Assembly (NCBI GenBank): GCA_001695645.1
Contig: LVZN01000003.1
Span: forward strand, 49,992 to 81,991
Length of the DNA: 32,000 bases
Origin: Erysipelotrichaceae bacterium MTC7
GTDB taxonomy: Bacteria > Bacillota_I > Bacilli_A > Erysipelotrichales > Erysipelotrichaceae
Reading direction: 5' to 3'
The notes beneath the pieces are model-generated. The model did no database searches and was not told the DNA's origin. It worked only from the letters and a program-made list of their open reading frames with translations. The translations under genes and the position numbers were made by a program. Positions 14,952-32,000 of the stretch are shown here, piece by piece (the first letter of the stretch is position 1; the number at the start of each line of letters is the position of its first letter).

Positions 14952-14981
14952 ATTGACTGAGTCAATAAAATGAAGTATAAT
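14952..14981 (+). promoter_or_regulatory. Consensus-like promoter with a 15-bp palindromic operator over the -35 box
   Basis: TTGACT (14953-14958), 17-nt spacer, TATAAT (14976-14981). Perfect palindrome ATTGACT-G-AGTCAAT at 14952-14966. Confidence 0.6.
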
Positions 14982-15024
14982 GAATATTAAGTGGAATTAT
15001 AGCTCTGCACCAGGAGGTGAGAAC

Positions 15025-15618
15025 TTGATAGGATTAGAATATGTTTTAAACCTCTATAACCTTCAACATATAGAACTTGCAGAAAAACTTGGCATAAAAA
15101 AACAAAATATTAACATGTGGGTGAAAGGGCGACAGAACATTCCAAAGAAATATCTACCGGTATTAGAAGAACTCTTTGGTATTGATCAGTTTTACTTTGG
15201 ACGTGAGCTTAGTGAAATTGATCAGTTAGAAATCCAGAAGGAAAAGCTGAAAAGAGATCTGAAGCCTGTAATCAAAAAGCATGAACAGCAGTATTCTTTG
15301 GGAGAGATTAATGATCTTGTTGAAGTTCCCATTTACGATAAAGAAGAAATGAATGCCATCGAACGAGATATTGAAAAAGCAAAACTCATATCTAAGTTTA
15401 AGGCCGCGATGGATGTAGTAGATAATAATCCATACTTGGAGACCTATAAGCTCATTGTTGAACTACTTGAAAAAGTACAGCATGAACCTGTTCTACACAA
15501 AACGATTGAAGCGTTGGCACACTATTACGAAGTCTTACCTGATTGGGTAAGTAGCGAACCAGAACAAGAAGGCTTTGAAGGTGAAATATTTGAAGTCTTT
15601 GATGATCATAACTATTAA
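15025..15618 (+). CDS. XRE-family helix-turn-helix protein with long acidic C-terminal extension
   Basis: HTH segment LQHIELAEKLGIKKQNINMWVKGRQNIP. Start set to TTG 15025, 7 nt after AGGAGG (15012-15017). The track's ATG 14980 lies inside the TATAAT box. 197 aa. C-terminal 130 aa unassigned. Confidence 0.7.
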   Translation: MIGLEYVLNLYNLQHIELAEKLGIKKQNINMWVKGRQNIPKKYLPVLEELFGIDQFYFGRELSEIDQLEIQKEKLKRDLKPVIKKHEQQYSLGEINDLVEVPIYDKEEMNAIERDIEKAKLISKFKAAMDVVDNNPYLETYKLIVELLEKVQHEPVLHKTIEALAHYYEVLPDWVSSEPEQEGFEGEIFEVFDDHNY

Positions 15619-15637
15619 ACATTTGGAGGTAAAATAA

Positions 15638-17161
15638 ATGACTGAGAACACAGGAAATATTGGATTTGAAGAGACGCTTTGGAAAGCGGCTGATAAATTA
15701 AGAGGCAGTATGGATGCCAGTGAATATAAACACGTGGTACTGGGGCTTATCTTCTTGAAGTACATATCCGATAAATTTGAAACAAAATTTGACGCACTTA
15801 TTGAAGAAGGTGCAGGCTTTGAAGAAGACCGAGATGAATACGAAGCAGAGAACATCTTCTGGGTTCCTAAAGAAGCGAGATGGTCTTTTATCAAGGATAA
15901 TGCAAAAGATCCCAAAATCGGTCAGTTTATTGATGATGCCATGATTCTTATTGAAAAAGAGAATACATCCCTAAAGGGTGTACTGGATAAGCGTTATGCA
16001 AGACCCGAAATTGATAAAAGAAGACTGGGAGAACTGATTGACTTAATTTCAACGATAAAGCTTCATCAAAATGGAGAAAAGGACTTACTGGGTAGAGTGT
16101 ATGAGTACTTCCTTGGCCAGTTTGCCAGTGTTGAAGGAAAAGGCGGTGGAGAATTCTATACGCCTACTAGCGTTGTTAAGACCTTAGTTGACATGATTGA
16201 ACCCTACCAAGGCAGAGTTTATGACCCTTGTTGTGGATCCGGCGGTATGTTTGTTCAGAGTGAAAAGTTTGTGGAAGATCATCAAGGTAGAGTTGAAAAT
16301 CTATCCATCTATGGTCAGGAGATGAACTCAACTACATGGAAGCTTTGCAAGATGAACCTAGCTATCAGAGGACTTGATGCCAATCTAGGACCACACCATG
16401 CTGATACTTTCCATCATGATCTTCATAAAACATTAAAGGCAGACTTCATCCTTGCTAATCCACCTTTTAATATTAGTGACTGGGGTGGCAATCAACTTAC
16501 AGATGATGTGAGATGGAAATTTGGTATTCCACCTGCAGGTAATGCGAACTACGCATGGCTTCAGCATATGGTTTATCATCTTGCACCTAATGGAAGCGCT
16601 GGTATTGTTCTTGCTAATGGATCACTAAGCACGAACACTTCAAACGAAGGTGAAATTCGGAAGAATTTATTAGAAGAAGATATGGTCGATGCCATTGTCG
16701 CTCTTCCCGATAAACTGTTCTATTCAACAGGTATTCCCGTATCGCTATGGATACTTAACAGAAACAAGAAGGATAATCCGAAGTACAGATCAAGAGAACA
16801 CGAAGTCCTCTTTATTGATGCACGACAATTGGGAGAAATGATAGATAGAAGACACAGAGAGCTAACAGAGGAAGATATTAGTAAGATTTCTGAAACCTAT
16901 CATGAATGGCGAAATATCGATGGGGAGTATGAAGATATCAAGGGTTTCTGTAAGTCCGCTAGTATCGAAGACATCAGAGAGCATGAATATGTTCTAACAC
17001 CTGGGAGATATGTAGGAATTGAAGATATTGAAGATGATGGTATCCCATTCGACGAAAAAATGGAGAGTATGACAGCAGAGTTAGCAGAACTCTTTGCTAA
17101 ATCCCGACACCTAGAAGAAGAGATTAGAAAAAATCTTGGGGGTATTGGGTATGATTTTTAA
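15638..17161 (+). CDS. hsdM: Type I restriction-modification system methyltransferase subunit
   Basis: HsdM N-terminal domain ([35 protein letters not shown]), AdoMet motif [10 protein letters not shown], catalytic NPPF ([11 protein letters not shown]). SD GGAGG. Confidence 0.95.
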
Positions 17162-18296
17162 TGAGTGGAAGACGGTCAAGGTCGGAGAAACTATTATTTC
17201 TTCGAATACAGGCTTGGATGCAATAAAAAGAGCTCCTATAGTAGATTATAACAGCGGAATTAAATGTTTAAGGATACAAGATATTTCACAAAATAAGAAT
17301 TTTGAAGATTGGGGATATTGTCTAGTTGAGGAGAAGAATTTTAAAAAATTTCAATTAGTAAAGGGGGATATTATTGTTGCAAGAACAGGAGCAACAATTG
17401 GTGTTAATAGACTGATAAAGCAAAATCTAAAAGCTGTGTACAACAATGGCTTAATTCGTATTAAAAGTAATGCGGATATAATCAATACTGATTACTTGTA
17501 TTATAATTTGCAAAGTCATAAGTACAAAGGTCATATTCAGGCAATTTCTGGTGGAACTTCAACTCAACCTAATATGAAAATGAATGCACTTTTGGATTAT
17601 GAAATAAAGCTTCCTTCTCTAAATGAACAAAAATCAATAGCCCATATCCTCTCAACTCTAGATGATAAAATCGAAGTCAACAACCAGATTAACAAAACCC
17701 TTGAGAATATGGCGCAGGCATATTTTGATGATATGTTTCCAAATGTAGCTGCAGGAGATACAACAATAGGTGAGTACATTACACCGAAACGTGGCAAGAA
17801 TTTGCTTTCTAAAGACGCAATTAGTGGAGAAGTTCCTGTTATTGCAGGAGGTCTTTCACCGGCCACATACCATAATGTATCAAATACTCAATCACCCGTT
17901 ATTACTATCTCTGCTTCTGGCGCAAATGCTGGTTTTGTTAATCTTTGGACTGTTCCTGTTTGGTCATCTGATTCTTCATTTATCGATTATGGAATGACTA
18001 AAGATGTTTATTTTTGGTATGTAATGCTCAAGAAGCGTCAAAAGGAAATTTATGACTCTCAAACAGGGTCAGCACAGCCACACATATACCCAAAGCATAT
18101 TACAATTATGCCGACTATTAAACTTAACGTTGATGAAATCAACTTATATACTAAACGAGTCACACCTTTGTTTAAAAAAATTGCAAATAATTTATATGAA
18201 ATCTCGAAACTACAGTTAATCCGTGACACGTTGTTACCCAAACTTATGTCTGGAGAAATCAGAGTTCCTCTTGACGAAGAAGGTGCTGTATCGTGA
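17151..18296 (+). CDS. hsdS: Type I restriction-modification system specificity subunit
   Basis: Two variable target-recognition halves. They are separated by the conserved central helix [39 protein letters not shown] and end in the matching C-terminal helix [22 protein letters not shown] 17151 overlaps hsdM by 11 nt. Confidence 0.9.
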
Positions 18297-18496
18297 AGTT
18301 TGGATTTAGAAAACCAAGCTTAAAGAGAAGAATCTCTGCAAGAACTAGCATCAAAAGGCAGGTAGTGCACCGAGCAGGGATAAAGATGCCGCGGGGATAT
18401 GGATTTCTGAGGAATCCCAAGAAAGCAGTTTACAACAAAGTATACAATCGGACATCCTTTGATATATTCAAGACACTAAAAAAGCTGTTCAAATAA
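18293..18496 (+). CDS. 67-aa highly basic protein of unknown function, coupled to hsdS
   Basis: GTG start forms a GTGA overlap with the hsdS stop. 12 Lys + 9 Arg versus 1 acidic residue. Sequence KPSLKRRISARTSIKRQV...PRGYGFLRNPKKAVYNKVYNRTS resembles a recurrent small basic motif I recall from hypothetical proteins in Firmicutes mobile or defence loci (memory only). Confidence 0.5.
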   Translation: MKFGFRKPSLKRRISARTSIKRQVVHRAGIKMPRGYGFLRNPKKAVYNKVYNRTSFDIFKTLKKLFK

Positions 18497-18616
18497 TAAC
18501 TCATTCAAGGTTAATTTGTTGAATGGAGAAGTGGAGGTGCGGGGTGATCAATAAAACAATAGAAATAAATCAAATGACTACTTTAGAAATTAGAGATTGT
18601 CTGGGAGGTGGTAGTG

Positions 18617-21600
18617 ATGAGTAGTGTGAATGGTATTTTTACAGAAGCGATGCTTGAAGAAGCAGCGATAGAAATTTTAGAAAATATGGGCTATGAATAT
18701 GCCTTTGGCCCGGATATTTCTTTGGGTGGAGACTATGAAGAGCGAAAAGATTATCGTGAGGTAATTCTTTCATCTAGAGTGAAAGACGCACTCTTTAAGA
18801 TCAATCGAGATCTTCCAAGAGAGGCCCTTGAGGATGCCTATCGTCAACTGATTACATTCAATAGTCCCATGCTCGAAGAAAACAATCGCTATTTTCATCA
18901 GTTAATGACAGAAGGGATAGAAGTATCCTTTAATGAAGGTGGACAGATTCGCACCAAAAGAGCTTATATTATAGACTTTGAAAATATAAGAAATAATGAA
19001 TTTGTGGTTGTCAATCAATTTACTATTATAGAAAATGAAGAAAGAAGACCGGACCTTATCGTCTTTGTGAATGGACTGCCACTTGTGGTCATTGAGTTAA
19101 AGTCTGCGAGTGATGAAAATGTAGGGATTGAGGGTGCCTATAATCAGATTCAGACTTACAAGAGAGATATTCCTTCGCTATTTAATTACAATGCTTTTTG
19201 TGTAATCTCAGATGGAATCAATGCAAAAGCTGGAACTATTACTTCCAATGAAGAGTGGTTCATGAACTGGAGAACCGTTGATGGCGAGAATATTGCACCT
19301 TTATCTGAGCCTCAGTATGAAGTGCTGTTGGGTGGCATGTTCCAAAGAGAAAGATTATTAGATATTATTCAAAACTTCATTCTTTTCCAGGAGTCGAAAG
19401 AAGCGGAGAAGGATTTTGAAGGCAAGAAAATAGGGGATAAAAAATCCATCATTAAAATTCTAGCAGCCTATCATCAGTACTTTGCTGTTAAGAAAGCGAT
19501 TGAAAAAACAAAAGAAGCGACAAAGGAAGACGGCGATCGTAAGATCGGTGTTGTTTGGCATACACAAGGTTCGGGAAAGAGCTTTTCTATGGTGTTTTAT
19601 ACCGGGGGCCTTGTGAGAGAACTTAATAATCCAACCATCGTGGTTATAACGGATAGAAATGACCTGGATGATCAACTGTTTACAACCTTCAGTAAATCAA
19701 AAGATATCCTGCGTCAGACACCAAAACAAGCAACGATAAGAAAACTCTCAGACAACCAAAGAACGAATTATGTGGGTGGGAATAGTACCGAAGTGAACGG
19801 GCTTTATGACCTCTTAAATGAAAGGGAGTCCGGAGGGATTATTTTTACGACCATACAAAAGTTCAAACCAGAAGATGGCGAGATGCCGGTACTCACCGAT
19901 CGGAAGAATGTCATCATCATTGCCGATGAAGCCCACAGAAGCCAATATGGATTAGAGGCCAAAGTAGATGCTAAAACCGGTGAAGTGAACTATGGCTATG
20001 CGAAATACCTCAGAGACGCACTACCTAATGCCTCTTTTATTGGTTTTACAGGGACACCGATTGATCTGGAAGATCGATCAACGGTAGCCATATTTGGTCA
20101 TACCATTGATACCTATGACATGACCCAAGCGGTAGAAGATGAGGCAACGGTTCGAATTTATTATGAAAACCGCATCATTAAACTGGAAACAGATGAAGAA
20201 GAGCTGACAAAAATTGATGATGAATTTGAAGAAATCACAGAAGGTCAAGAAGAATTTGAGAAGGATAAAAACAGAGCCAAATGGTCCAGAATGGAATCCA
20301 TTGTGGGTTCTCCAAACAGAGTCAAAAAGCTTGCTGAAGATATAGTAAATCACTACGAAGAAAAAGCGAAGAGTATCGATGGCAAGGCTATGGTTGTATG
20401 CATGAGTCGCAGAATCTGTGTTGATCTTTATGAGGCGATAACAGCACTGAGACCTGATTGGCATCATGATGATATTGATAAAGGGAAAATCAAAGTTGTT
20501 ATGACTGGTAGTGCAGCAGATAATGAAAAGCTTCAGAAGCATTTAGGTGGCAAACAGCGTAGAGACCTGCTTGCGAAACGCATGAAGGACAATAGTGACG
20601 AACTTAAAATAGTAATTGTGAGAGATATGTGGCTCACTGGGTTTGATGTGCCGTCCATGCATACCATGTATATTGACAAACCTATGAAAGGTCATAACCT
20701 GATGCAAGCCATTGCAAGGGTTAATCGCGTCTTTAAAGAAAAATCTGGCGGTGTAGTGGTTGACTATATCGGAATTTTAGAAAGCTTAAAGAGCGCACTA
20801 AAACAATATACCAATACGGATCGACAAAATACCGGTATTGATACGGACGTTGCGGTTGCTGTCATGCTTGAAAAACTGGAAATCTTAAGAGACATGATGC
20901 ACGGGTACGATTACTCGAAGTACATGGGGAATTCTCAAGTGGAAAGAATGAGAACTATTGTAGGTGGTATGGACTTCATTCTCGGAAAGAAAGAAGAAGA
21001 ACAAAAGGAATTTAAAAAGATAGCTCTTGAATTAGGAAAGGCTCATGCACTATGTGCGGCAACGGATAAGGGGAAAGAAAAGGCTCTTGAAGTTAGCTAT
21101 TTTAAAGCAGTTAAAGCCAGTCTTGTCAAGTTGAAGGAAAAAGAGAAAACACCTTTATCAAAAAGAGAAATTGAAGCAAGACTTCATCAAATGCTGGAAC
21201 GCTCCATCATCTCAGAAGATGTTATTGATGTATTTGATGCCATGGGAATCAAAAGGCCGGAGATCTCAATCCTTTCTGAAGAGTTCTTAAAAGAAGTTCA
21301 GGGAATGAAGCAGAAGAACTTAGCTGTAGAAATGCTTAAGAAATTATTAGAAGGCAACATCAAAGCTATGGAAAAGAGAAACCTCGTGAAATCAGAGAAG
21401 TTCTCTGAAAGGCTGACAAAGGCTCTAAACAAGTATCGAAACCAAGCACTTACAAATGCTGAAGTGATTGAAGAACTTATTCGAATGGCCCATGACATTA
21501 AAAAGATGCGTGAGGAAGAGGCTGAACTGGGTCTAAGCGACGATGAAATTGCTTTTTATGATGCACTGACAGCGGATGATATCGTTAAAGAACTCATGGA

Positions 21601-21889
21601 AGATGAAACGCTTAAGAAAATCGCTCATGAATTAACTTTGGCTATAAGAAATAATATCACCATTGATTGGAGCGTTCGAAAAAGTGCAAGAGCGAGCATG
21701 AGACGTGTAATTAAGAGGCTTCTTAGCAAGTATGACTATCCACCAGATCAAGCATTAAAAGCGATGAATATTGTCATGAGGCAAGCAGAGAAAATGGCTG
21801 GAAATGTTTATGAAGAAGTTATCTGGTCCGACAGAGTTGCAGAAGAGCCTGGGAAATTCACAACGGTTGATGAAAGGAATGAAGAATAA
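18617..21889 (+). CDS. hsdR: Type I restriction endonuclease subunit R
   Basis: N-terminal PD-(D/E)xK nuclease motif ([20 protein letters not shown]). SF2 motor motifs [32 protein letters not shown]. Long helical C-terminal region. ATG 18617 is 8 nt after GGGAGG (18603-18608). Confidence 0.95.
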
Positions 21890-22110
21890 TGGCAGAAATA
21901 AAATATGAAATCAAAGAAACCGTGGCTACACTTTCAGAAAACAATAAAGGTTGGTCAAAGGAGCTGAATTTAATCAGCTGGAATGACAGGGAACCTAAAT
22001 ATGACATCAGAGATTGGGCACCTGAACATGAGAAGATGGGCAAAGGTGTAACCTTAAGCGTAGAAGAACTTAAAAAGCTTAGGGAGATACTGAATGAAAT
22101 GGAACTTTAG
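21889..22110 (+). CDS. YdbC/PC4-like single-stranded-DNA-binding protein (DUF2128 type)
   Basis: 73 aa. SENNKGWSKELNLISWNDREPKYDIRDWAPEHEKMGKGVTLS is collinear with my recollection of Lactococcus YdbC. Its ATG shares the A with the hsdR TAA stop (TAATG). Confidence 0.8.
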   Translation: MAEIKYEIKETVATLSENNKGWSKELNLISWNDREPKYDIRDWAPEHEKMGKGVTLSVEELKKLREILNEMEL

Positions 22111-22122
22111 GGAGGTTGAGAT

Positions 22123-23112
22123 ATGTACAGTATTAAGGGGAAACAAGCTGCCAGGATTGAACCGGTCACTTTTTCAGAACTGAATATGACTGAAAATGAT
22201 ATAGAGGAAGTTTTAAGAAACAGTATTGATATGATCTGTGATGAAGAAGAATCTATGCTCATTGTCGGTAGACAAGTTAGAAATGAGAAGAATGGAAGAA
22301 GTGATTTGACCGCAGTCGATAACAACGGAAATATTGTACTAATTGAAATTAAGAGGGACCGAAAAGATATTGAACATCGCAAAGAAGCTTTTGAATTTCA
22401 AGCAATAAGATATGCAGCTAGTTATGCAACAATAGATAAAATCGATGATTTAGTGAAAAAAGTTTACGCTCCATACATTGAAAAATATAGAAGTGAGTTT
22501 GAACCGGGAGAGTTAACCTCATTTGAACTTGGTATTCGTAAGTTAAATGAGTTCCTTCAGGTGAATGATGCACAGAAGAACTTCAATGAAAAGCAAAGGA
22601 TCATCTTGGTGGCGTCTGATTTTGATGAGCAGACATTGTCGGCAGTTGCGTGGCTTAATAGCAATAATGTTGATATGAGTTGCTATAGATTAACTCCGTA
22701 CAAGCTGAATGAAGATATATTTTTCTATGTAGAAAAGCTACTTCCGGTTACCAATTACGATGATTATTATGTGAACTTGATGGACAAGTCGGCTGTCACA
22801 ACAGTAACTGGAGATAAGAAAATCACACGAAGATCACTGCCTAAAATTGACTTAATGCTTGAATGGGGTGTGGTTAAAGAAGGCGACATCATTGTTGCTA
22901 AAGGTAGAGAAGATGAAGGAAGGCTTCTATCCAATGGTAATGTAATGGTCAATGGTGAAGAAAAGTCGATGCAAGCATGGCTGAAGGAAGTTTATGGATG
23001 GTCTAGCGTTCAGACTTATGTTTTTGCGGTACACAAAGAAACTGGCAAAACGCTGTCTCAGATTCGTGAAGAGTATATGGCACAAAAGGAGACAGAGAAT
23101 ACTGAAATATAG
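22123..23112 (+). CDS. NucS/DUF91-like PD-(D/E)xK nuclease-fold protein with unassigned C-terminal domain
   Basis: 329 aa, SD GGGAGG 12 nt after ydbC-like stop. Intact D-x13-E-x-K (GRSDLTAVDNNGNIVLIEIKRD) followed by QAIRYAA, then RIILVASDF strand, as in NucS-like endonucleases. Residues about 235-329 (GDIIVAKGREDEGRLLSNGNVMVNGEEKSMQAWLKEVYGW...) have no motif I can name. Confidence 0.6.
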   Translation: MYSIKGKQAARIEPVTFSELNMTENDIEEVLRNSIDMICDEEESMLIVGRQVRNEKNGRSDLTAVDNNGNIVLIEIKRDRKDIEHRKEAFEFQAIRYAASYATIDKIDDLVKKVYAPYIEKYRSEFEPGELTSFELGIRKLNEFLQVNDAQKNFNEKQRIILVASDFDEQTLSAVAWLNSNNVDMSCYRLTPYKLNEDIFFYVEKLLPVTNYDDYYVNLMDKSAVTTVTGDKKITRRSLPKIDLMLEWGVVKEGDIIVAKGREDEGRLLSNGNVMVNGEEKSMQAWLKEVYGWSSVQTYVFAVHKETGKTLSQIREEYMAQKETENTEI

Positions 23113-23168
23113 AAAACAAGCAACTGCTTAGTGAGAAATTATTAATTTTAAAAAGGGGAGGCATCGCA

Positions 23169-24629
23169 ATGAAACGATTATGTTTTGGTACACTTATGAG
23201 CATATTGTATCAAGCTCGCAACCAAAAGGTTACGAATAATTTGTTGTGCGATGCAATCTTTTCATCATATGCCCAATCAATAGAGCTTCGAGATGGTTCT
23301 CTTCCAGGACACCTTAAAAGTGGCCGTGACAATGTACCACCAGATGTTATTGATGCTGCTCGGAATACATCTTTTGAAGATGCAGAAAAAGTATTTCAAA
23401 CTAAAGTGATTTCATTGATCAAAGATAGTAAACGTGAATCGGTAGTCCGTGCTATTAAAGACGTTTTGCGAGAGGATACAACAATTCAAGATCATACAGT
23501 GGTTGGGTATATTAATGGCTATGAAAAAAATAATATCTTAATTAATTCTACATTCAGTTTATCTGCTCTTTTGGCATCGGTATTTTACTTTGCCATAATT
23601 GAAGTTAAAAATCAAGAATGTAAAGACGCAATAAAAGGAATTGACAAAAAATATGTAGAGTCTTTTGAATCATCATCGGAACCTGTATATTTTGAAAGAG
23701 CAAAAGCGGATGTACACTTACCTTTGCAGAAAACGCTTCATGATCCAGTATTTGACCGTGTATTTAATCAAGTATCCTCGCTAACTATATCCGGTCTTGC
23801 TAACCCATCAAATGTAAAAATTTATGGCGTTGATGTAAATAACTGCAAATTTAAGTTCAAATCATTAAAAGAATATCTTGTAGATAACATTGGAAGTTAT
23901 GTGTTTTCTAGAGCAAAAGCTAATAGATATACTAGTTCGGGTAAAAGTGCATCCATCGGAGCACAGGCATTAATTAGATTCATGCAAGCTTATGGAACGT
24001 GTGCTGAAACTATTCTTGGAGAGATGCTCTTATATGTTTTTATGGAGCAGGAGCTCAATGCTCCAAAGATAATGAGTAAGATCGAAATAGATGATCTCGG
24101 AGGGATGAGCTGCAGTAAAAGTGATGGTGTTCATCTTTTAGCGGTAGAAAATAATGGCCAATTATTTCATCAGCTTGTATTTGGTGCATCCGATATTTAT
24201 GGTGATTTGACAGCCAGCATAGATAGAGCCTTTGATAAAATTATTGATATTGAAAATAATAGTGATATTGAATTGAAGATGGTTGAAAACACTACGCATA
24301 ATAATATTTATGATCCCGATACCACTAATTATATGATAGATCTTTTGCTACCGAAAAAATCCAATGTTCCTAAGCCCGATATGGCATACGGAGTTTTTCT
24401 TGGATATACTCTTTCTTTGGATTATAAGGAAACCGATAATAATAAATATCGTACTGCAGTAAAGACTCAAATGCAAAATGATATTGTTTCATTACAGCCA
24501 TATATTGAGAAGAAGATTCGTGACAATGGTTTATCTGGATATAATTTTTATTTATTTGTTGTACCGTTTAATGACGCCCCAACTGAGAAAAACAGCATTA
24601 TTTCAGAGATGCTAAGTGGGAGGTATTGA
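23169..24629 (+). CDS. hamA: DUF1837/HamA-like protein (Hachiman component A), atypically long
   Basis: 486 aa, SD AAGGGGAGG. Central-to-C-terminal core GEMLLYVFMEQELNAPKIMSKIEIDDLGGMSCSKSDGVHLL...LVFGASDIYGDLTASIDRAF matches my memory of the DUF1837 layout. Stop is 2 nt before an SF2 helicase gene. Family call rests on motif memory plus gene pairing. Confidence 0.65.
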   Translation: MKRLCFGTLMSILYQARNQKVTNNLLCDAIFSSYAQSIELRDGSLPGHLKSGRDNVPPDVIDAARNTSFEDAEKVFQTKVISLIKDSKRESVVRAIKDVLREDTTIQDHTVVGYINGYEKNNILINSTFSLSALLASVFYFAIIEVKNQECKDAIKGIDKKYVESFESSSEPVYFERAKADVHLPLQKTLHDPVFDRVFNQVSSLTISGLANPSNVKIYGVDVNNCKFKFKSLKEYLVDNIGSYVFSRAKANRYTSSGKSASIGAQALIRFMQAYGTCAETILGEMLLYVFMEQELNAPKIMSKIEIDDLGGMSCSKSDGVHLLAVENNGQLFHQLVFGASDIYGDLTASIDRAFDKIIDIENNSDIELKMVENTTHNNIYDPDTTNYMIDLLLPKKSNVPKPDMAYGVFLGYTLSLDYKETDNNKYRTAVKTQMQNDIVSLQPYIEKKIRDNGLSGYNFYLFVVPFNDAPTEKNSIISEMLSGRY

Positions 24630-24631
24630 TT

Positions 24632-27247
24632 ATGCAAATCCCAAGAAACCAGACCCTCGCTGAAGCATTATATAAGGATATTGATAGCAATGAATATTTA
24701 AATGAGATTTATGAGTCTCTGCTATATAATTATTCAATACATATTTTTAAGATTCAGAAACAACAAAAAAGAGTTAATGTAAAAGATGCATTACGATTTG
24801 CAGATTTATTGGCAAAGTCTACCATACCAGAGAAACGAGATAGACATAAGCTGTGGGGCCAAGAACTTATAATCCTATTGAGTATAATTTATCCGGAAGA
24901 TTCATCAGTAAAGTATTACCTTGGATCCATACTTTCGACGGTTGGAAATTATCGCGGTTTGCAATCTACTTATGTTGAAGGATTTCAGACTGCTGATGTA
25001 TTTGATGCTTTATATTTCGAATATGACAAATCTACACTGCAGATCCCTGGTCATGAGGAAAGCTATTTTTTTCATGATCAGAAGGACGTATATGATGGTC
25101 TGAGCAGTAAGTATTTTAGCTATTCTGGGCCTACATCGATGGGTAAATCTTTTGTTGTACAAACATATCTTAAACAGCAAATTGAGAATGGTTCAACGAA
25201 AAACTATGCAATCCTGGTACCCACAAAAGCTTTAATAAACGAGGTTCGTAGTAATATAATTGGAAGTCTTCAGGAAAAGCTTCAGGAGACAAATTATCGT
25301 GTTGTCAGTGCGTCAGGAGATATAGTATTGCAACAAGAACACAATTTTATTTTTGTCATGACACCTGAACGACTTCTTCACATGATGATAGGTATGCCAA
25401 AAATAAAAATCGATTTTCTATTTGTAGATGAGGCTCATAAAATATCAGACAGAGGTGGGCGTAGTGCCTATTATTATAAGGTGGTTGCACAGTTATCGAA
25501 GATGAAAGAGATGCCGACAGTTATTTTTGCTTCGCCAAATATTCCGAATCCTGAAGTGTACCTGAGCTTGATTCCAAAGATTCAAGTAGATGAAATTAAA
25601 AAAATGGCGTCAAAATACGCACCAGTATGTCAATTTAAGTATTTCTTAGATTTATGTGAGGGTAGAGCATATTTTCATAATGATTATTCAAAATCACTTT
25701 CATATATTGCTAACATTCCACAACAAGATGAATTAAGTGAGATTGTTACAAGAGTTGGTTCTACACAACAAAACATCATCTATTGTAATTCGAGACAAAA
25801 AGTTGTAGATTATGCTGTTCAGTATGCAAAGAACCTTCCTATCAAGAATGATGAAAAACTTGTATCTTTAGCAAAAGATATCCGTAATGAAGTACATAGC
25901 GATTGTTATCTTGCAGACTTGATACTAAAAGGTATTGCTTACCATGTTGGATATCTACCCTCCAATATTCGACTAAGAATCGAGAAAAGTTTTGTGGATG
26001 GTGTTTTAAGAACTATATTCTGTACAAGCACACTTGTAGAGGGAGTGAATCTTCCGGCAGATAATTTGTTTATTACAAGCTATAAAAATGGGAACTCTAA
26101 TATGGATGAGGTGGAATTTAGAAACCTTGTAGGACGAGTGGGTCGTATTAAATATAATTTATATGGAAATGTGTTCTTAGTTCGTATGGAAGATAATCTT
26201 ATAACTGAGAAGTACATCAACTTATTACAAAATGATGTTCCACAACAGGAAGTTTCGATTAATTTAAAAGACAATAATAAGCATTTGAGCTTGGTTATTG
26301 ATGATTTAATTCGTGGCGATATAGAATTAACTACGGTTCGTGAAGCAACAACCTCAAAGGACTTTGAAGCGTTGCGAAAATTTGCAATGATTCTTATAAA
26401 AGACATTGCAGAAGGTATTAGTACACCAATACGAGAAGCATTCTCACCATTTTTAGATGAATATAAAGAGTATAAAATAAGGGAAATATTCCCTATAGAA
26501 AAGACTAGTGACGATATTAATTTTTCATATGATCAAGTGGTTAACCTGAGAGAACTTGTGAAAAGTGGCCAGAAATATCCAAAGGTGACAGGAGAAAATG
26601 ATGAGGTTGATTTTGAGGAACTTGTTGATTTTCTCATGAAGCTAAGAAAAGTATTTAAGTGGGATATCTATGAGAAAAGAACAATAGGGAAAGCTGGTGC
26701 CTATAGGGAAGATTCTGTTATTAGGTGGTATGCTGTTATTCTATTAAGATGGATTAGAGGTAATGGTCTTAACCAGATTATTTATCATGCACTTAAATAT
26801 AAGGAGAATAATCCAAATACAGGTGTATGGGTTGGCAATATGAAGTTGGCTGATATATATAACAAAAACTCTAAACTTCACAAAAATTATATTATTGCAG
26901 AAACACTTGGTGTGATTGAAAATGTTCTATTGTTTAGCATTTCAAATTATTTCAGGAAATTCTCCCTTGAATATAAGAATGTGCACCAAGTAGATCATTT
27001 CCAAAATGATTGGTATGAATTTGTGGAATATGGAACAACAAATCCACTGACCATTTTTCTTCAACAAAGCGGTTTTTCTCGGGAATCATCAAAATTTATA
27101 GAAGAACCATCTAATAGAAATAAATATTTAACAGAGGTTGACGGTGAATTAAGGATACATCGTTCTATACTTGAATGCGGCAATATTGGTGTCGAAACTG
27201 AAACAAAAGATATACAATTTAATATGCCAGAACTTTTCATTGATTAG
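24632..27247 (+). CDS. hamB: SF2 DEAH-box helicase, HamB-like (Hachiman component B)
   Basis: 871 aa from ATG 24632 (SD GGGAGG 24618-24623; alternative TTG 24626). Helicase motifs I GPTSMGKSF, Ia LVPTKALINEV, II FVDEAHKI, III ASPNI, V TSTLVEGVNLPA, VI FRNLVGRVGR. About 150-aa N-terminal and about 300-aa C-terminal unassigned regions. Confidence 0.8.
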   Translation: MQIPRNQTLAEALYKDIDSNEYLNEIYESLLYNYSIHIFKIQKQQKRVNVKDALRFADLLAKSTIPEKRDRHKLWGQELIILLSIIYPEDSSVKYYLGSILSTVGNYRGLQSTYVEGFQTADVFDALYFEYDKSTLQIPGHEESYFFHDQKDVYDGLSSKYFSYSGPTSMGKSFVVQTYLKQQIENGSTKNYAILVPTKALINEVRSNIIGSLQEKLQETNYRVVSASGDIVLQQEHNFIFVMTPERLLHMMIGMPKIKIDFLFVDEAHKISDRGGRSAYYYKVVAQLSKMKEMPTVIFASPNIPNPEVYLSLIPKIQVDEIKKMASKYAPVCQFKYFLDLCEGRAYFHNDYSKSLSYIANIPQQDELSEIVTRVGSTQQNIIYCNSRQKVVDYAVQYAKNLPIKNDEKLVSLAKDIRNEVHSDCYLADLILKGIAYHVGYLPSNIRLRIEKSFVDGVLRTIFCTSTLVEGVNLPADNLFITSYKNGNSNMDEVEFRNLVGRVGRIKYNLYGNVFLVRMEDNLITEKYINLLQNDVPQQEVSINLKDNNKHLSLVIDDLIRGDIELTTVREATTSKDFEALRKFAMILIKDIAEGISTPIREAFSPFLDEYKEYKIREIFPIEKTSDDINFSYDQVVNLRELVKSGQKYPKVTGENDEVDFEELVDFLMKLRKVFKWDIYEKRTIGKAGAYREDSVIRWYAVILLRWIRGNGLNQIIYHALKYKENNPNTGVWVGNMKLADIYNKNSKLHKNYIIAETLGVIENVLLFSISNYFRKFSLEYKNVHQVDHFQNDWYEFVEYGTTNPLTIFLQQSGFSRESSKFIEEPSNRNKYLTEVDGELRIHRSILECGNIGVETETKDIQFNMPELFID

Positions 27248-27264
27248 TTCTGAGATTCTATTAT

Positions 27265-27300
27265 GCCTCCTGCAGTAATGCAGGGGGCTATTTTTTTTTT
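27265..27300 (+). terminator. Strong rho-independent terminator closing the defence array
   Basis: GCCTCCTGCA (27265-27274), loop GTAA, TGCAGGGGGC (27279-27288): 10 bp with one G-U pair. Then TA plus T10 (27291-27300). Confidence 0.85.
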
Positions 27301-27313
27301 GTCTTTTTAAGTT

Positions 27314-27355
27314 CCATACTTTACCCATATTTCATCCCTACTGCATCCATATTTT
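27314..27355 (+). repeat. Three helically phased CCATAYTTY repeats
   Basis: CCATACTTT 27314-27322, CCATATTTC 27325-27333, CCATATTTT 27347-27355. Start-to-start spacing 11 and 22 bp. Confidence 0.6.
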
Positions 27356-27429
27356 GAAGACGAACTATTAGCGATAATAGAAGTATCAAAGGAATGTCAT
27401 AGAAATCCAATCGGTGGGAGGTGAATGAA

Positions 27430-27570
27430 ATGAGCAAGAACAAGAAGCAAACATCCAAGAGAGTTGCTTCAAAAGCAAGCAAAATCCTTAGTGATGGACG
27501 CTACAGTAAGAAAGCCAAGTCGGTTGCTGGCAGTGCTTTAAGTCAAACAAGACCAAGCAAGAAAAAGTAA
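27430..27570 (+). CDS. 46-aa basic small protein (below the ORF-track length cut-off)
   Basis: ATG 27430 preceded by GGTGGGAGGTG. Encodes MSKNKKQTSKRVASKASKILSDGRYSKKAKSVAGSALSQTRPSKKK, stop TAA 27568-27570. 15 basic and 1 acidic residue. Coding status unproven. Confidence 0.4.
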   Translation: MSKNKKQTSKRVASKASKILSDGRYSKKAKSVAGSALSQTRPSKKK

Positions 27571-27798
27571 TTTTCAAAACAAATGATAGGTAGAGATAGA
27601 TTTGAATAATCAGCCTACTTACCCTCCCTAAGGGAGAAATCTATCCAGAGCGGTTATCGCTCAAAAAAATCAATCTCAAAGTCCTAGTGCGCATACGGAC
27701 GGCGGGATGCATAAGAGTTCAGAACACAGTAATAAAGACTGTGTTTGGAATGAAGATGCACCCACCGTTATTTCGTGTGCCCTTTTTTAGGACAAGCG

Positions 27799-27832
27799 GA
27801 GTCTGTGGTCATCTTCATCACAGGCTCTTTTT
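27799..27832 (+). terminator. Terminator-like hairpin in the leader of the sigma-like gene
   Basis: GAGTCTGTG (27799-27807) pairs with CACAGGCTC (27819-27827): 9 bp with one G-U pair, 11-nt loop. Then T5 (27828-27832). Only 40 nt upstream of ATG 27873. Confidence 0.55.
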
Positions 27833-27872
27833 GTATTCCGCCGCCTGATGCCAGGACGGAAAGGAATACTTT

Positions 27873-28421
27873 ATGAAGATTCGAGTTTTATATGAAGACA
27901 ACATCAAAAATGGTCACAAGAACTACACCACAATTGAAATTCCAGATGGAGATTACAGCGTTATGTTGGACATTGACTATGAGCAGCGTCTTACACAGGC
28001 AAAGCCGGAAAAGAAAGCAGAGGTGAAACGCTGCGAGACTCTACAGGAAATGTTCGACCTCATGAACAACAAGGAATACAACCATTGGCGCCGCTACCAT
28101 AGGCACCTTGGCAAACCAAAGACTCCATATCGTAAAGATGATCAGGCTGAAGATGAAACTGATGTCATGGATACTTTCGCTGATAACTCTCAGGAGATAG
28201 AACGGAGTCTCCAAGATGAGTACGAATCTGTCTGCCAATGGATACGCACCACTCTTGGTAAAAAGCAGGATTGGGCAGATATGTTCATTGCAGTACGCAT
28301 TGACGGCATGTCCATCCGCGAATATGCCAGTTCTATAGGTGTTGATGAAAACAATATTACCCAGAAATTAAAACGAGCAACAAAAAAATTAGAACAAGAA
28401 TATAAAAATCGTCAGATTTGA
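27873..28421 (+). CDS. Sigma-70 region-4-like HTH protein (mobile-element regulator / putative sigma factor)
   Basis: 182 aa. C-terminal IAVRIDGMSIREYASSIGVDENNITQKLKRATKKLEQEY has the region-4 HTH pattern of ECF/sigma-70-like proteins found at the start of Firmicutes ICE and prophage early operons. N-terminal 120 aa unassigned. Confidence 0.55.
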   Translation: MKIRVLYEDNIKNGHKNYTTIEIPDGDYSVMLDIDYEQRLTQAKPEKKAEVKRCETLQEMFDLMNNKEYNHWRRYHRHLGKPKTPYRKDDQAEDETDVMDTFADNSQEIERSLQDEYESVCQWIRTTLGKKQDWADMFIAVRIDGMSIREYASSIGVDENNITQKLKRATKKLEQEYKNRQI

Positions 28422-28485
28422 CCTTCTCCCGTGGCTACTAGGTAGGAGGTCAAGACCTCCCCAAAAAAATAAGGAGGTAATTCGA

Positions 28486-29265
28486 ATGGAATTACAAGTT
28501 TACAAAAATGTAGAGTTCGGCTCTGTACGTACTACAACGATTGGTGGTCAACCATATTTTGTAGGTAAGGATGTAGCAAGCATTCTCGGTTATATAAATA
28601 CCCGAAAAGCATTAATTGACCATGTTGATGAAGAGGATAAGGGGGTAACGAAATGTGACACCCTTGGTGGGAAACAGGATTTGACTATCATCAATGAATC
28701 CGGTCTTTATAGTCTTATCCTCTCAAGCAAAATGCCTAATGCCAAAAAGTTCAAGCGCTGGGTTACAAGCGAAGTTCTCCCTGCTATTCGTAAACATGGA
28801 CTTTATGCTACCGATGATTTAATCGCCAATCCCGATCTTGCCATTGCAGCTTTTACTGCACTAAAAGAGGAACGAGAAAAGAACAAGGAGTTGATAGCGG
28901 CCGTTGCTATTGGTCAACAACAAATTGCTGAGATGAAACCCAAGGCTACTTATTATGATGTGGTTCTTAAATGCAGGGATGCAGTAAATATTTCTGTAAT
29001 TGCCAAAGATTATGGCTGGAGTGCCATGCGCATGAACGAATACCTTCATGAAAAAGGGATTCAGTTTAAGCAAGGTGATATTTGGCTTCTCTATCAAAAG
29101 TATGCTCCCAATGGATATACCAAAACCAATACTCACATTTATGAAGACAGCAAAGGTATCCAACATACGAAAGTGCATACCAAGTGGACACAAAAAGGCA
29201 GACTCTTTATCTATGAACAGCTAAAGGCGGATGGTATTTATCCGCAGATTGAGATGGAGGTGTGA
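28486..29265 (+). CDS. Phage antirepressor, Bro-N + KilAC domains
   Basis: N-terminal Bro-N pattern (FGSVRTTTIGGQPYFVGKDVASILGY...INESGLYSLILSSKMPNAKKFKRWVTSEVLPAIRKHG). C-terminal KilAC/ANT-like segment (ATYYDVVLKCRDAVNISVIAKDYGWSAMRMNEYLHEKGI). SD AAGGAGGT. Confidence 0.85.
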   Translation: MELQVYKNVEFGSVRTTTIGGQPYFVGKDVASILGYINTRKALIDHVDEEDKGVTKCDTLGGKQDLTIINESGLYSLILSSKMPNAKKFKRWVTSEVLPAIRKHGLYATDDLIANPDLAIAAFTALKEEREKNKELIAAVAIGQQQIAEMKPKATYYDVVLKCRDAVNISVIAKDYGWSAMRMNEYLHEKGIQFKQGDIWLLYQKYAPNGYTKTNTHIYEDSKGIQHTKVHTKWTQKGRLFIYEQLKADGIYPQIEMEV

Positions 29266-29266
29266 T

Positions 29267-29701
29267 ATGAGAATTAACATGAAAAATGCAGAGGGTTATT
29301 ATGATCCTACTCCCCATGAAGCACTTAGTAATATAACCCGTGAGGAAAAGGCAGCAGCAAAAGCTGCCTTTAAGCCCCTTGTCTATATTTGCTCTCCATT
29401 TAGTGGCGATATTGAAAACAACAATAAGCGGACACGAGCGTTTTGCCGTTTTGCTTTAGATAAGGGCAATATTCCGCTTGCTCCTCACCTTCTATTACCA
29501 CAGTTTATGGATGACAACAATGAACAGGAACGTGACCTCGCTATTTTTATGGATATTATCCTGATGGGCAAATGCCAAGAGGTCTGGGTGCTAGGTGATG
29601 TGATTTCAAGGGGCATGAGTATTGAAATTGAAAAAGCAAAGAAACGCAGACAGCCGGTCAGATACTTTAATAAAGATTTTGAGGAGGTAGAGTCTCTATG
29701 A
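29267..29701 (+). CDS. DUF4406 / nucleoside 2-deoxyribosyltransferase-like protein
   Basis: 144 aa from ATG 29267 (SD GGAGGTG; the track's ATG 29231 lies inside the upstream gene). VYICSPFSGDIENN...GNIPLAPHLL...VWVLGD pattern resembles the DUF4406 Rossmann-like family common in phage and ICE replication modules. Confidence 0.45.
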   Translation: MRINMKNAEGYYDPTPHEALSNITREEKAAAKAAFKPLVYICSPFSGDIENNNKRTRAFCRFALDKGNIPLAPHLLLPQFMDDNNEQERDLAIFMDIILMGKCQEVWVLGDVISRGMSIEIEKAKKRRQPVRYFNKDFEEVESL

Positions 29702-32000
29702 AGATAGCATACGGCAACAGCCGAATGGATAAAAAGTGGAAAAACACAGACATCAGCTGGGAGGACTTCTGCTCCCGTGTTAAGACCACACAGCGTACCA
29801 CCGAAACGGTAGAAGAATATCGAAAAATGAGAAAAGGTGGCCAGGACTCCATTAAAGATGTCGGCGGTTTTGTTGGCGGTCATTTAAAAGATGGCAGACG
29901 TAAAAAAGGGAATGTTCTATCACGCTCCATGCTCACCCTTGATATGGATTATGGCACAAGTACTATCTGGGAAGAAATCTCTACCTTCTACCCTTATCAG
30001 TGTTGTATTTATTCTACTCATAAGCATGCTCCAGAAAATCCAAGACTAAGGCTGATTATTCCTCTCTTCCGTGATGTTGGAGAGGAGGAGTATGCAGCCG
30101 TTAGTCGCATGGTCGCAAAAGAAATCGGCATCGACCTTTTTGATGATACGACCTATGAACCAGAACGATTAATGTATTGGCCGTCTACTTCAAGAAACGG
30201 CATTTTTGTGTATGAGGAAAAAGATGGTTCTCTCCTTGATCCTGATGTATTTCTAAATAAATATGATGATTGGCGTGACACCAGTACTTGGCCCGTATCC
30301 TCTAGGCAGTCAGAAGTACTTGATCGCTCATTAAAAGAACAAGCCGATCCACTTTCTAAAGAAGGTGTCATCGGTACTTTTTGCCGTACCTACTCAGTTA
30401 GCACTGCAATCGATACGTTCTTAAAGGATATATACGAACCTTCAGTAATGGTTGGTCGATATGATTATATCCCGGCTGACTCCAGTGCAGGGGTTATCCT
30501 CTATGATGATAAGTTTGCCTATTCTCACCACGCAACAGATCCTGCAAGTGGGAGGCTGCTTAATGCTTTTGACCTTGTTCGCATCCATCGATTTGGTCAT
30601 TTAGATGATCGAGCGACAGAAAGCACACCTCCAAGCAAACTCCCATCCTTTATCAACATGTGCGAATTTGCCACCCAAGACGATAAAGTAAAAGCCCAGT
30701 TTACGAAAGAGCGGATGGAACAGGCTACGATTGATTTTACGGAGGATAATTGGCAGACAGCACTTGAACTGGATAAGCAAGGAAAGATTAAAGACACCTT
30801 GGACAATATCGTTCTCATCATCCGCAACGATTCAGAACTAGAATCTATTGCTTTTAATAAGCACCGTGATGGAATCGATGCAAGAGACGGATTGCCTTGG
30901 GAGCAAATGAAGGGCGGCTGGAATGATTCAGATAATGCAGCCCTTAAAGTTTATCTGTCTAATAAATATGGCATCTACTCCCCAACCAAAACAAAGGACG
31001 CAATACTAGCAGTCGCAGCAGAGCGTTCCTATCATCCTATAAAAGAATACCTGGATCATCTACCAGAGTGGGATGGAACCGATCGCGTTGAGACCTTACT
31101 GATTGATTACTTCAATGCAACAGATAATTCCTATACCAGAGCCGTTACTAGAAAAATGATGGTGGCAGCAGTCGCTAGAATTGTTCATCCTGGTACGAAA
31201 TTCGACAGCGTTTTAATTCTAAATGGTCCACAAGGCATCGGTAAGTCTACCTTCTTTGCAAAGCTTGCAGGTGATTGGTTTTCCGATAGTTTGACGCTCA
31301 CGGATATGAAGGATAAAGCAGGTCCTGAGAAACTTCAAGGGTACTGGATTTTAGAACTGGGCGAACTAGCCGGCATGCGAAAAACCGATGTGGAAGTTGT
31401 GAAATCCTTTATCTCAAGATCGGACGATAAATACCGTGCCAGTTATGGGGTGAATGTGGAAAGCCATCCTCGTCAATGTATCATTGTCGGCTCTACCAAT
31501 GCAGAAAGTGGATTTTTGCGAGACATCACGGGTAACCGAAGATTCTGGCCTGTGCGCATTAGTGGTGACGGCAAAAGAAAAGCATGGCAGATGTCCGTAT
31601 ACGATGTAGAGCAGATTTGGGCAGAAACTTTGGTGCTTTATGCCAAAGGTGAAAAGCTCTATTTAGAAGGCAGTGATGTAGAGTTAGCAACGAATGAGCA
31701 GGCAGATGCCATGGAGAGTGATGAGCGAGAAGGGCTTGTTCGCACTTACCTCGATACGCTTTTACCCGATGACTGGAATGCCCTGTCCTTATACGAGCGA
31801 AGAAACTACCTAAACGGTAGTGAATTTGGTGGGGAATCCCGTGTTGGCACGGTAGAACGTACGCTTGTTTGTAATATGGAAATTTGGTGTGAATGCTTTG
31901 GAAGGGATGCCTCCGCCATGAAACCTGCGGACTCCTATGCCATTGCAGGCATTATGAAAAAGATTAATGGGTGGAACAAGTACCAAGGGAACAAGAACGG
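29698..32000 (+). CDS. VirE-family (virulence-associated protein E) primase/helicase-like protein, 3' end beyond the window
   Basis: Not in the supplied ORF track because no stop occurs. I translated nt 29698-31998 by hand: 767 sense codons with no stop. ATGA overlap with the upstream gene. Contains P-loop LNGPQGIGKSTF, Walker-B-like YWILELGEL, and RRFWPV, typical of VirE/P4-like replicative proteins. Confidence 0.85.
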   Translation, partial: MKIAYGNSRMDKKWKNTDISWEDFCSRVKTTQRTTETVEEYRKMRKGGQDSIKDVGGFVGGHLKDGRRKKGNVLSRSMLTLDMDYGTSTIWEEISTFYPYQCCIYSTHKHAPENPRLRLIIPLFRDVGEEEYAAVSRMVAKEIGIDLFDDTTYEPERLMYWPSTSRNGIFVYEEKDGSLLDPDVFLNKYDDWRDTSTWPVSSRQSEVLDRSLKEQADPLSKEGVIGTFCRTYSVSTAIDTFLKDIYEPSVMVGRYDYIPADSSAGVILYDDKFAYSHHATDPASGRLLNAFDLVRIHRFGHLDDRATESTPPSKLPSFINMCEFATQDDKVKAQFTKERMEQATIDFTEDNWQTALELDKQGKIKDTLDNIVLIIRNDSELESIAFNKHRDGIDARDGLPWEQMKGGWNDSDNAALKVYLSNKYGIYSPTKTKDAILAVAAERSYHPIKEYLDHLPEWDGTDRVETLLIDYFNATDNSYTRAVTRKMMVAAVARIVHPGTKFDSVLILNGPQGIGKSTFFAKLAGDWFSDSLTLTDMKDKAGPEKLQGYWILELGELAGMRKTDVEVVKSFISRSDDKYRASYGVNVESHPRQCIIVGSTNAESGFLRDITGNRRFWPVRISGDGKRKAWQMSVYDVEQIWAETLVLYAKGEKLYLEGSDVELATNEQADAMESDEREGLVRTYLDTLLPDDWNALSLYERRNYLNGSEFGGESRVGTVERTLVCNMEIWCECFGRDASAMKPADSYAIAGIMKKINGWNKYQGNKN

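Follow-up and report, generated by a model that had tools for sequence, protein, structure and literature searches.

A Hachiman system with a degenerate DUF1837 nuclease and a putative N-terminal effector domain shared with other immune systems

Among anti-phage systems Hachiman is relatively widespread, yet how it works is understood only where HamA itself cuts DNA or bears a Cap4 nuclease or trypsin protease domain. Here we describe a hamA-hamB gene pair in 32,000 nucleotides (nt) of Erysipelotrichaceae bacterium MTC7 (assembly GCA_001695645.1, contig LVZN01000003.1, positions 49,992 to 81,991 of the forward strand). We call this whole stretch the window and number it from its first letter. 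Its HamA has lost the E-x-K of the DUF1837 nuclease and begins with a folded domain that is probably the effector. The pair represents a large subfamily, with several hundred sequence clusters ranging from Listeria to gut Lachnospiraceae.

Type I Hachiman has been split into four types (Nat Commun 2025, PMC11914072). Type I-A HamAs, which make up 86% of 1781 HamAs, consist of DUF1837 only and are active; types I-B (Cap4), I-C (peptidase) and I-D ('X') carry an N-terminal domain, with average lengths of 87 to 577 amino acids (aa), and are without the (D/E)xK. The ECOR31 system (8vx9/8vxy, PMC12278908) is of type I-A. Its HamA is about 260 aa long, has DUF1837 only and a working D-E(x)K (E138, K140), and the change E138A/K140A abolishes defence. 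For DEC14B HamA, E150A/K152A abolishes both defence and DNase activity (PMC11914072).

Two systems with an N-terminal effector have been described in detail. In E. coli K-12 AbpAB, also called Cap4-HamAB (8zue, PMC11914072; type I-B), the HamA-like domain of AbpA is catalytically inactive and follows an N-terminal Cap4 domain, as noted by Tuck et al. (Cell 2024, PMC12278908). The effector is a Cap4-type PD-(D/E)xK endonuclease of ~250 aa that is auto-inhibited until HamB acts (PMC11914072), and the DUF1837, which has no PD-(D/E)xK residues, is the scaffold. In trypsin-HamAB-MBL (9wh1/9whk/9whu; type I-C-like), the N-terminal domain, a trypsin-like protease, switches on the MBL nuclease encoded by a third gene, and the DUF1837 is again without catalytic residues. 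The effector is disordered in the DNA-bound structures, and it is proposed to be released after DNA-stimulated ATP hydrolysis (bioRxiv 10.1101/2025.09.03.673762).

The window holds the following two genes, both of them listed open reading frames (ORFs).

23169..24629, plus strand: hamA, 486 aa, an N-terminal domain, a linker and a catalytically degenerate DUF1837
24632..27247, plus strand: hamB, 871 aa, a Ski2/Hel308-like superfamily 2 (SF2) helicase

The genes are tightly coupled, with the coordinates that a first-pass annotation, made by a model from the letters alone, had given. A GGGGAGG stands 7 nt 5' of the hamA ATG. The hamA stop (TGA, 24627-24629) is separated by 2 nt from the hamB ATG at 24632, and the hamB ribosome-binding site lies within hamA (GGGAGG, 24618-24623, 8 nt 5' of the ATG). 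The ORF finder lists a TTG at 24626 as an alternative upstream start of hamB.

That annotation had called the pair a Hachiman-type DUF1837 protein with an SF2 helicase, and had allowed that the first protein might not match DUF1837 at all. Pfam, PADLOC and Foldseek all bear out the Hachiman call. HamA matches PF08878 (HamA/DUF1837) over aa 231-467 with E=1.6e-38, a match that takes in all 230 profile positions. The PADLOC model PDLC00164 (HamA1) matches over its full length, with aa 1-485 aligned to positions 1-488 of its 490 (E=2.2e-230), so a dedicated model for the long HamA subfamily already exists. The nearest NCBI protein is a 'HamA C-terminal domain-containing protein' of Listeria innocua, whose identity rounds to 100% with one residue differing, and hundreds of full-length homologues of 480-492 aa are present, for example in Lachnospiraceae. 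The 486 aa had been noted as unusually long for a HamA, which is correct. The possibility had also been raised that HamAs with a long N-terminus would prove to be common and already characterised. They are indeed common and catalogued, as PDLC00164 and the homologues attest, but the second half does not hold, as our literature search found no paper that characterises the long N-domain HamA subfamily.

HamB is equally clear. It is PADLOC PDLC00190 (HamB1) with E=0, it matches DEAD, ResIII and Helicase_C in Pfam, and among PDB sequences it finds 9wh1_B at 8e-72 as well as the E. coli HamBs 8vx9_B and 8zue_B and Hel308. All of the helicase motifs quoted in the first-pass annotation are present: GPTSMGKSF at aa 166-174, VDEAH at 265-269, TSTLVEGVNLPA at 465-476 and GRVGR at 501-505.

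We also modelled full-length HamA with AlphaFold2 (AF2), with a predicted local distance difference test score (pLDDT) of 88.9. Foldseek of this model against the PDB gave the E. coli HamAs 8vxy_A and 8vx9_A (probability 1.00), with 8zue_A third, as the sole meaningful neighbours. The closest solved relative by sequence is trypsin-HamAB-MBL: the C-terminal domain of HamA reaches 9wh1_A at 8e-8 as a single sequence and at 3.5e-19 with a mixed profile (A4). Genes for HamA and HamB also adjoin each other in three distant homologous loci (L005, L007 and L009), as well as in four plasmid loci that encode a short HamA. With a DUF1837 HamA, an adjoining SF2 HamB with intact motifs and a conserved operon pairing, the locus is, by homology and predicted fold, a genuine two-gene Hachiman (HamAB) system, and a putative anti-phage role can be assigned to it by family membership. 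It resembles the ECOR31 system in its hamA-hamB operon, its DUF1837 fold and its Ski2/Hel308-like HamB with intact motifs, and by analogy its HamB presumably detects damaged DNA or free ends in the manner of ECOR31 HamB.

Where the locus departs from ECOR31 is in HamA. The C-terminal part of the gene has these features.

23751..24626, plus strand: DUF1837 / HamA C-terminal domain with a PD-(D/E)xK fold and the E-x-K lost (Pfam aa 231-467, Foldseek)
24123..24125, plus strand: codon of Asp319 (in SDGVH), at a beta-strand start; it is the leading acidic residue of the former D...ExK and is still in place
24183..24194, plus strand: G339-A340-S341-D342, which fills the columns of the canonical G-E-S-K
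24270..24278, plus strand: E368-L-K370 ('IELK'), not a relocated catalytic motif

We mapped the catalytic columns indirectly because no profile reached 8vx9_A by sequence: phmmer and the profiles A3 and A4 gave no direct bridge from HamA to 8vx9_A (9wh1_A was the only structure reached), and short plasmid HamAs likewise fail to reach it. The mapping therefore uses four short D...GESK HamAs together with the Foldseek fold agreement with 8vx9_A. These four proteins are 307-346 aa long and plasmid-borne, and in every case the next gene encodes a DEAD/DEAH helicase. All four read H-G-[AS]-D-G-V-[HY], then ~15 residues, then [FW]-G-E-S-K-x-Y-G, with the Glu/Lys pair at E158/K160 in two of them and at E166/K168 and E183/K185 in the others.

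In alignment A4, HamA of the window reads S-K-S-D319-G-V-H ... L-V-F-G339-A340-S341-D342-I-Y-G against the GESK of the short HamAs, so that the Asp is kept, the Glu is replaced by Ala and the Lys by Asp. A340 and D342 thus stand in the columns of E138 and K140 of ECOR31 HamA, and the protein has an extra 177-aa N-domain as well. The fold and the strands are right: in the AF2 model D319 starts the strand 320-328 and residues 339-342 end the strand 331-343, which is the expected PD-(D/E)xK geometry. It is the (D/E)xK residues that are wrong, being Ala and Asp, and the D-E(x)K motif of type I-A is missing, with D319 kept and G-A-S-D in the GESK columns. The first-pass annotation had noted that no E-x-K follows the SDGVHLL strand, and this alignment bears it out.

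The loss is not particular to this protein. A340 is invariant in the close family of 74 sequences. When the comparison is widened to 44 N-domain-bearing HamAs, down to about 25-30% identity, the catalytic Glu is found in 0/44 and the Lys in 1/44, against 4/4 short HamAs for both; the column of D319 holds an Asp in 27 of the 44. The G-A-S-D in the GESK columns and these counts argue that the DUF1837 nuclease of HamA is very probably inactive, as the first-pass annotation had suspected on account of the missing canonical E-x-K. It had also named IELK as a conserved E-x-K that might fall into the catalytic columns. Alignment A4 does not place it there, and we rejected it as a relocated motif because the E368 column is invariant even in the short HamAs that have GESK, and the K370 column is variable (Lys in 3/44).

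Could the DUF1837 still be a nuclease through a non-canonical site, formed by D319, E285 or E293 and a relocated K317 or K300, with the N-domain as a regulatory part? Enzymes with migrated catalytic residues do occur in the PD-(D/E)xK superfamily. The close family has invariant E285, E293, K300, E306, S316, S318, D319, G320, H322, Q335 and G339 and an almost invariant K317, and the former active-site pocket is therefore under strong constraint. However, this constraint fades in the wider set, where the Asp of D319 is kept in 27/44 and the Lys of K317 in 21/44, and the canonical Glu in none. The key residues of the N-domain, by contrast, are kept in at least 94% of 101 N-domains. Active short HamAs likewise keep E285, E293 and E368, which are therefore traits of the family and not compensations. 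In addition, the published N-extended HamAs have an inactive DUF1837 (PMC11914072; 10.1101/2025.09.03.673762). Taken together, we consider a surviving DUF1837 nuclease very doubtful.

This leads to the N-terminal part of HamA, for which the features are as follows. Percentages refer to an alignment of 101 N-domains from all architectures.

23169..23699, plus strand: N-terminal all-alpha domain (aa 1-177), a putative effector or 'X' domain (AF2)
23700..23750, plus strand: low-confidence linker (about aa 178-194), with pLDDT <50 at 178-182 and averages of 67-72 in the blocks of 171-190
23181..23183, plus strand: codon of Cys5, in an LC[FY]G motif just before helix 1, 96%, invariant in alignment A6
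23475..23477, plus strand: codon of Asp103, 95%, invariant in A6
23526..23528, plus strand: codon of Lys120, 95%, invariant in A6
23610..23612, plus strand: codon of Asn148, at the end of the hydrophobic helix 131-145, 94%

A separate AF2 model of aa 1-210, built from 74 sequences, has a pLDDT of 88 and a predicted template-modelling score (pTM) of 0.81. It consists of nine helices, with aa 1-170 above 90, and has a disordered linker beyond about residue 178, in which the full-length model concurs. Across the 101 N-domains only C5, G7 (90%), D103, K120, L135 (91%) and N148 are near-invariant. Beyond the close family, H48 and C27 lose the invariance that they have within it.

The first-pass annotation had described roughly 180 N-terminal residues with no recognisable motif. 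As far as database families go that is right. The N-domain has no Pfam match at E<=10, nothing in PHROGs, nothing in PADLOC beyond the long-HamA model itself, and in NCBIfam a single sub-threshold match to FevR (16 bits against a cut-off of 180). A profile search of PDB sequences gave a nematode ABA-1 repeat at E=0.32 as the best match, which we judged to be chance, and Foldseek of the N-domain model gave best E-values of 2.3 (PDB) and 1.3 (BFVD). A Pfam scan of about 91-92 N-domain homologues found no recurrent family over the N-domain. It is not a mere extension, though, since it is a discrete conserved domain.

Several candidate identities were rejected. A HEPN motif (Rx4-6H) is out because R41 is not conserved in the wide alignment, and an HD phosphohydrolase because this HamA has Arg at the H53 position and H48 is conserved in the close family only. 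A zinc site of C5, C27 and H48 fails on C27 and H48, which are not conserved across architectures. A lipobox does not fit a Cys at position 5 with no signal peptide.

In terms of the published classes, a folded 177-aa N-domain with a linker and an absent ExK is what types I-B, I-C and I-D have in common. Against I-B and I-C, the N-domain has no match to Cap4, to 8zue_A or to a protease by Foldseek, Pfam, NCBIfam or PADLOC, and because it is neither Cap4 nor peptidase we assign the window HamAB by exclusion to type I-D. The HamA that had been called atypical is therefore an instance of a described class, as HamAs with an N-terminal extension and an inactive DUF1837 were published in 2024-2025. 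The likeness to Cap4-HamAB lies in the plan of an N-terminal effector position on a scaffold DUF1837 without PD-(D/E)xK residues; the N-domain itself differs, being all-helical, ~177 aa and unrelated to known nucleases. Compared with trypsin-HamAB, our HamA has no trypsin domain and no similarity N-terminal of about aa 190, and no conserved third gene was seen in the three distant homologous loci.

What had been known is thus the class, an N-terminal effector with an inactive DUF1837, and a subfamily that is common and catalogued. What we add is that its 'X' appears, from the model and from sequence matches, to be a discrete and well-folded domain that is reused across Hachiman, ABC-3C/Lamassu-like and STAND (signal transduction ATPases with numerous domains) systems.

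We searched 1.84 billion representatives with aa 1-210 using phmmer and found 343 proteins at E<=1e-3. Of these, 91 matches that cover most of the N-domain were scanned; among them 39 carry HamA, 16 CTD11, 4 CTD6 and at least 5 NACHT. Two further N-domain proteins have NB-ARC matches, one of them fused to tetratricopeptide (TPR) repeats. The N-domain starts at residue 1-3 in every protein. The ABC-3C and NACHT/NB-ARC proteins are found by phmmer at E-values of 1e-9 to 1e-16, and their N-termini match the first ~180 positions of PDLC00164 at 1e-23 to 1e-33.

In the ABC-3C (Lamassu-like) systems, effector-component proteins, P0192 and P0217 among them, open with this ~175-aa N-domain and share its C5, D103, K120 and N148, and two of the CTD11 proteins stand within complete operons of N-domain-CTD11, an MC7 middle component and a DUF2326 ABC ATPase. 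Regulation there is by an ABC/SMC-like ATPase and a middle component, as opposed to the SF2 helicase and the dead DUF1837 here. Among STAND proteins (Avs/bNACHT-like), the N-domain is carried N-terminally by P0189 (NB-ARC and TPR), P0258, P0260 (NACHT and SNaCT14) and P0220. The N-terminal position is usually the effector position in NACHT/NB-ARC proteins, which differ from Hachiman in being single-protein sensors without a helicase or DUF1837. A NACHT-SNaCT14 fusion with the N-domain is a solo gene in an integrase-bearing element.

Four other proteins (P0233, from locus L015, P0214, P0238 and P0263) have the N-domain fused to C-terminal regions without a Pfam match, so the N-domain has further, still unclassified partners. 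One of the four is the PADLOC candidate PDC-S50 (2e-47).

The N-domain is the obvious candidate for a replacement effector because it is a discrete conserved domain that sits in the effector slot of other immune systems. We think it somewhat probable, by analogy with Cap4-HamAB and trypsin-HamAB, that the dead DUF1837 docks HamA on HamB, and that the fused N-domain has taken over killing under the control of HamB. The effector role is suggested by the loss of the nuclease site, by N-domain residues that are kept while the DUF1837 decays, by the effector slot in three unrelated chassis and by the lack of a conserved third gene in the three distant loci. In such a mechanism HamB, as a Ski2/Hel308-like SF2 helicase, would survey DNA until it takes in damaged DNA or a free single-stranded 3' end of the kind that phage infection produces. 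ATP hydrolysis would then remodel the HamA-HamB interface, and the N-domain would be released or activated and would harm the infected cell or the phage. Cys5, Asp103, Lys120 and Asn148 would form the active site. Going one step further, we suggest tentatively that aa 1-177 may be a previously unnamed effector domain, with a fold for which the PDB and BFVD searches gave no relative, whose new toxic or antiviral chemistry would depend on these four residues and which would be swapped among at least three unrelated chassis, those of Hachiman, ABC-3C/Lamassu-like and NACHT/NB-ARC systems.

Some observations pull the other way. The N-domain has no relative in Pfam, NCBIfam, PHROGs, PDB, BFVD or PADLOC beyond the long-HamA model, and no assignable activity. 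It is all-helical with one long hydrophobic helix, which is not a classic hydrolase fold. The former active-site block SKSDGxHL ... QLxFGAS is unusually invariant in the close family, which hints at a retained function of the pocket. Lastly, effector status is guilt by architecture.

The helices also allow for a membrane-active or other non-enzymatic toxin, a helical bundle with a buried hydrophobic helix that would insert into the membrane on release. The domain is all-helical, the helices of aa 6-15 and 131-145 are strongly hydrophobic, and an F-L-A-G-x-F-L-Y pattern is kept across architectures. Yet there is a single hydrophobic helix of about 15-17 residues, broken by polar residues, and polar side chains (C, D, K, N) at the near-invariant positions are what one would sooner expect of a site for catalysis or ligand binding. 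Foldseek gave no significant match to a pore-former, with diphtheria-toxin matches at E>6. We regard a toxin of this kind as improbable.

The remaining alternative concerns the gene immediately upstream of hamA.

22123..23112, same strand as hamA: PDC-S11 candidate, 329 aa, ending 56 nt 5' of hamA

Its protein matches PADLOC PDC-S11 at 1.4e-39. The N-terminal part is a NucS/Shedu-like nuclease region that contains D...E75-I-K77, and the C-terminal region matches RAMA below threshold (24.5 bits against a cut-off of 35.2). The first-pass annotation had suggested that hamAB may rely on this intact PD-(D/E)xK gene. The NucS/Shedu-like-RAMA gene is absent from all three distant homologous loci, where the gene 5' of hamAB differs from locus to locus and belongs to a type I, a SacI-like type II or an AlwI-like type II restriction-modification (R-M) system (L005, L007, L009). 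Since the upstream gene is not conserved in these loci and has a family of its own, PDC-S11, reliance on it is unsupported, and we rejected it as an obligatory partner. The tempting idea of an adjoining nuclease that stands in for HamA is thereby corrected. The gene is probably an independent defence gene and not a component of Hachiman.

A looser form of the idea is that the N-domain serves as an adaptor or sensor, either for an effector encoded in trans, such as this nuclease, or as a binder of the phage trigger. The Aravind laboratory has reportedly described effector-associated domains that serve as adaptors at the N-termini of STAND NTPases. An intact D...EIK is present in the upstream gene, which shares the strand of hamA and is separated from it by no obvious terminator. 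Trypsin-HamAB also works through a third protein, MBL (10.1101/2025.09.03.673762). On the other hand, the nuclease is missing from the three loci and belongs to the separate PDC-S11. An adaptor predicts fusions of the N-domain to enzymes, and a recognisable enzymatic effector is fused in 0/91 representatives. In the ABC-3C operons the N-domain is the sole candidate effector moiety. An adaptor or sensor role seems to us rather unlikely, and we continue to favour the N-domain as an effector under HamB control.

The shared 'X' domain offers a concrete target for finding a new immune effector activity, and C5, D103, K120 and N148 make a short mutation list. The set of Hachiman, ABC-3C and NACHT proteins is a natural comparison of how different sensors control one effector.

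A few further observations concern other hamAB loci. In L005 (85-10095), L007 (3079-10070) and L009 (2103-10072), which come from three unrelated genomes, the long hamA and hamB lie ~30 nt 3' of the R-M system on the same strand. The arrangement suggests that this cargo slot is conserved, or that Hachiman and R-M genes are transcribed together. In a metagenomic contig otherwise identical to L007 (L008, 7464-8835), hamB is shortened to 265 aa and a VapE-like gene comes next; this hamAB is a disrupted or recombined copy. Next to short GESK HamAs on alphaproteobacterial plasmids, a 'DCL family protein' gene lies directly 3' of hamB (L002 7438-7725, L003 7499-8233), and the Rhizobium locus L003 has an MBL-fold hydrolase gene directly 5' of hamA (2197-3780). 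The DCL and MBL-fold genes may be accessory components.

In the window, hamAB is part of a defence island (14980-30000) that begins immediately behind the housekeeping genes, which end with a U5-methyltransferase-like gene (13408-14724). After hsdR the order is the PC4-like gene, the PDC-S11 candidate, hamAB and the terminator.

14980-15618: helix-turn-helix (HTH)/YdaS-like gene
15638-17161: type I R-M hsdM
17136-18296: type I R-M hsdS
18608-21889: type I R-M hsdR
21889-22110: PC4-like gene, 73 aa, whose ATG overlaps the hsdR stop
27265..27298, plus strand: terminator-like hairpin and T-run, a 10-bp stem with 7 G-C pairs, then TATTTTTTTT
27873-28421: sigma-70 region-4 protein
28486-29265: Bro-N/ANT antirepressor
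29231-29701: DUF7768

We found no convincing promoter in the 56-nt gap 5' of hamA. The hairpin begins 18 nt 3' of the hamB stop; it resembles an intrinsic terminator and is the probable end of the hamAB operon. The 73-aa ORF matches eukaryotic-type PC4/p15 (PF02229, 3.9e-13) and phrog_26484, 'DNA binding protein' (2e-22), and from these matches its product probably binds single-stranded DNA. Genes like sigma-70 region 4 recur near hamAB, in L009, in L011 and in the window. The island as a whole has the look of an integrative mobile element at its cargo end.

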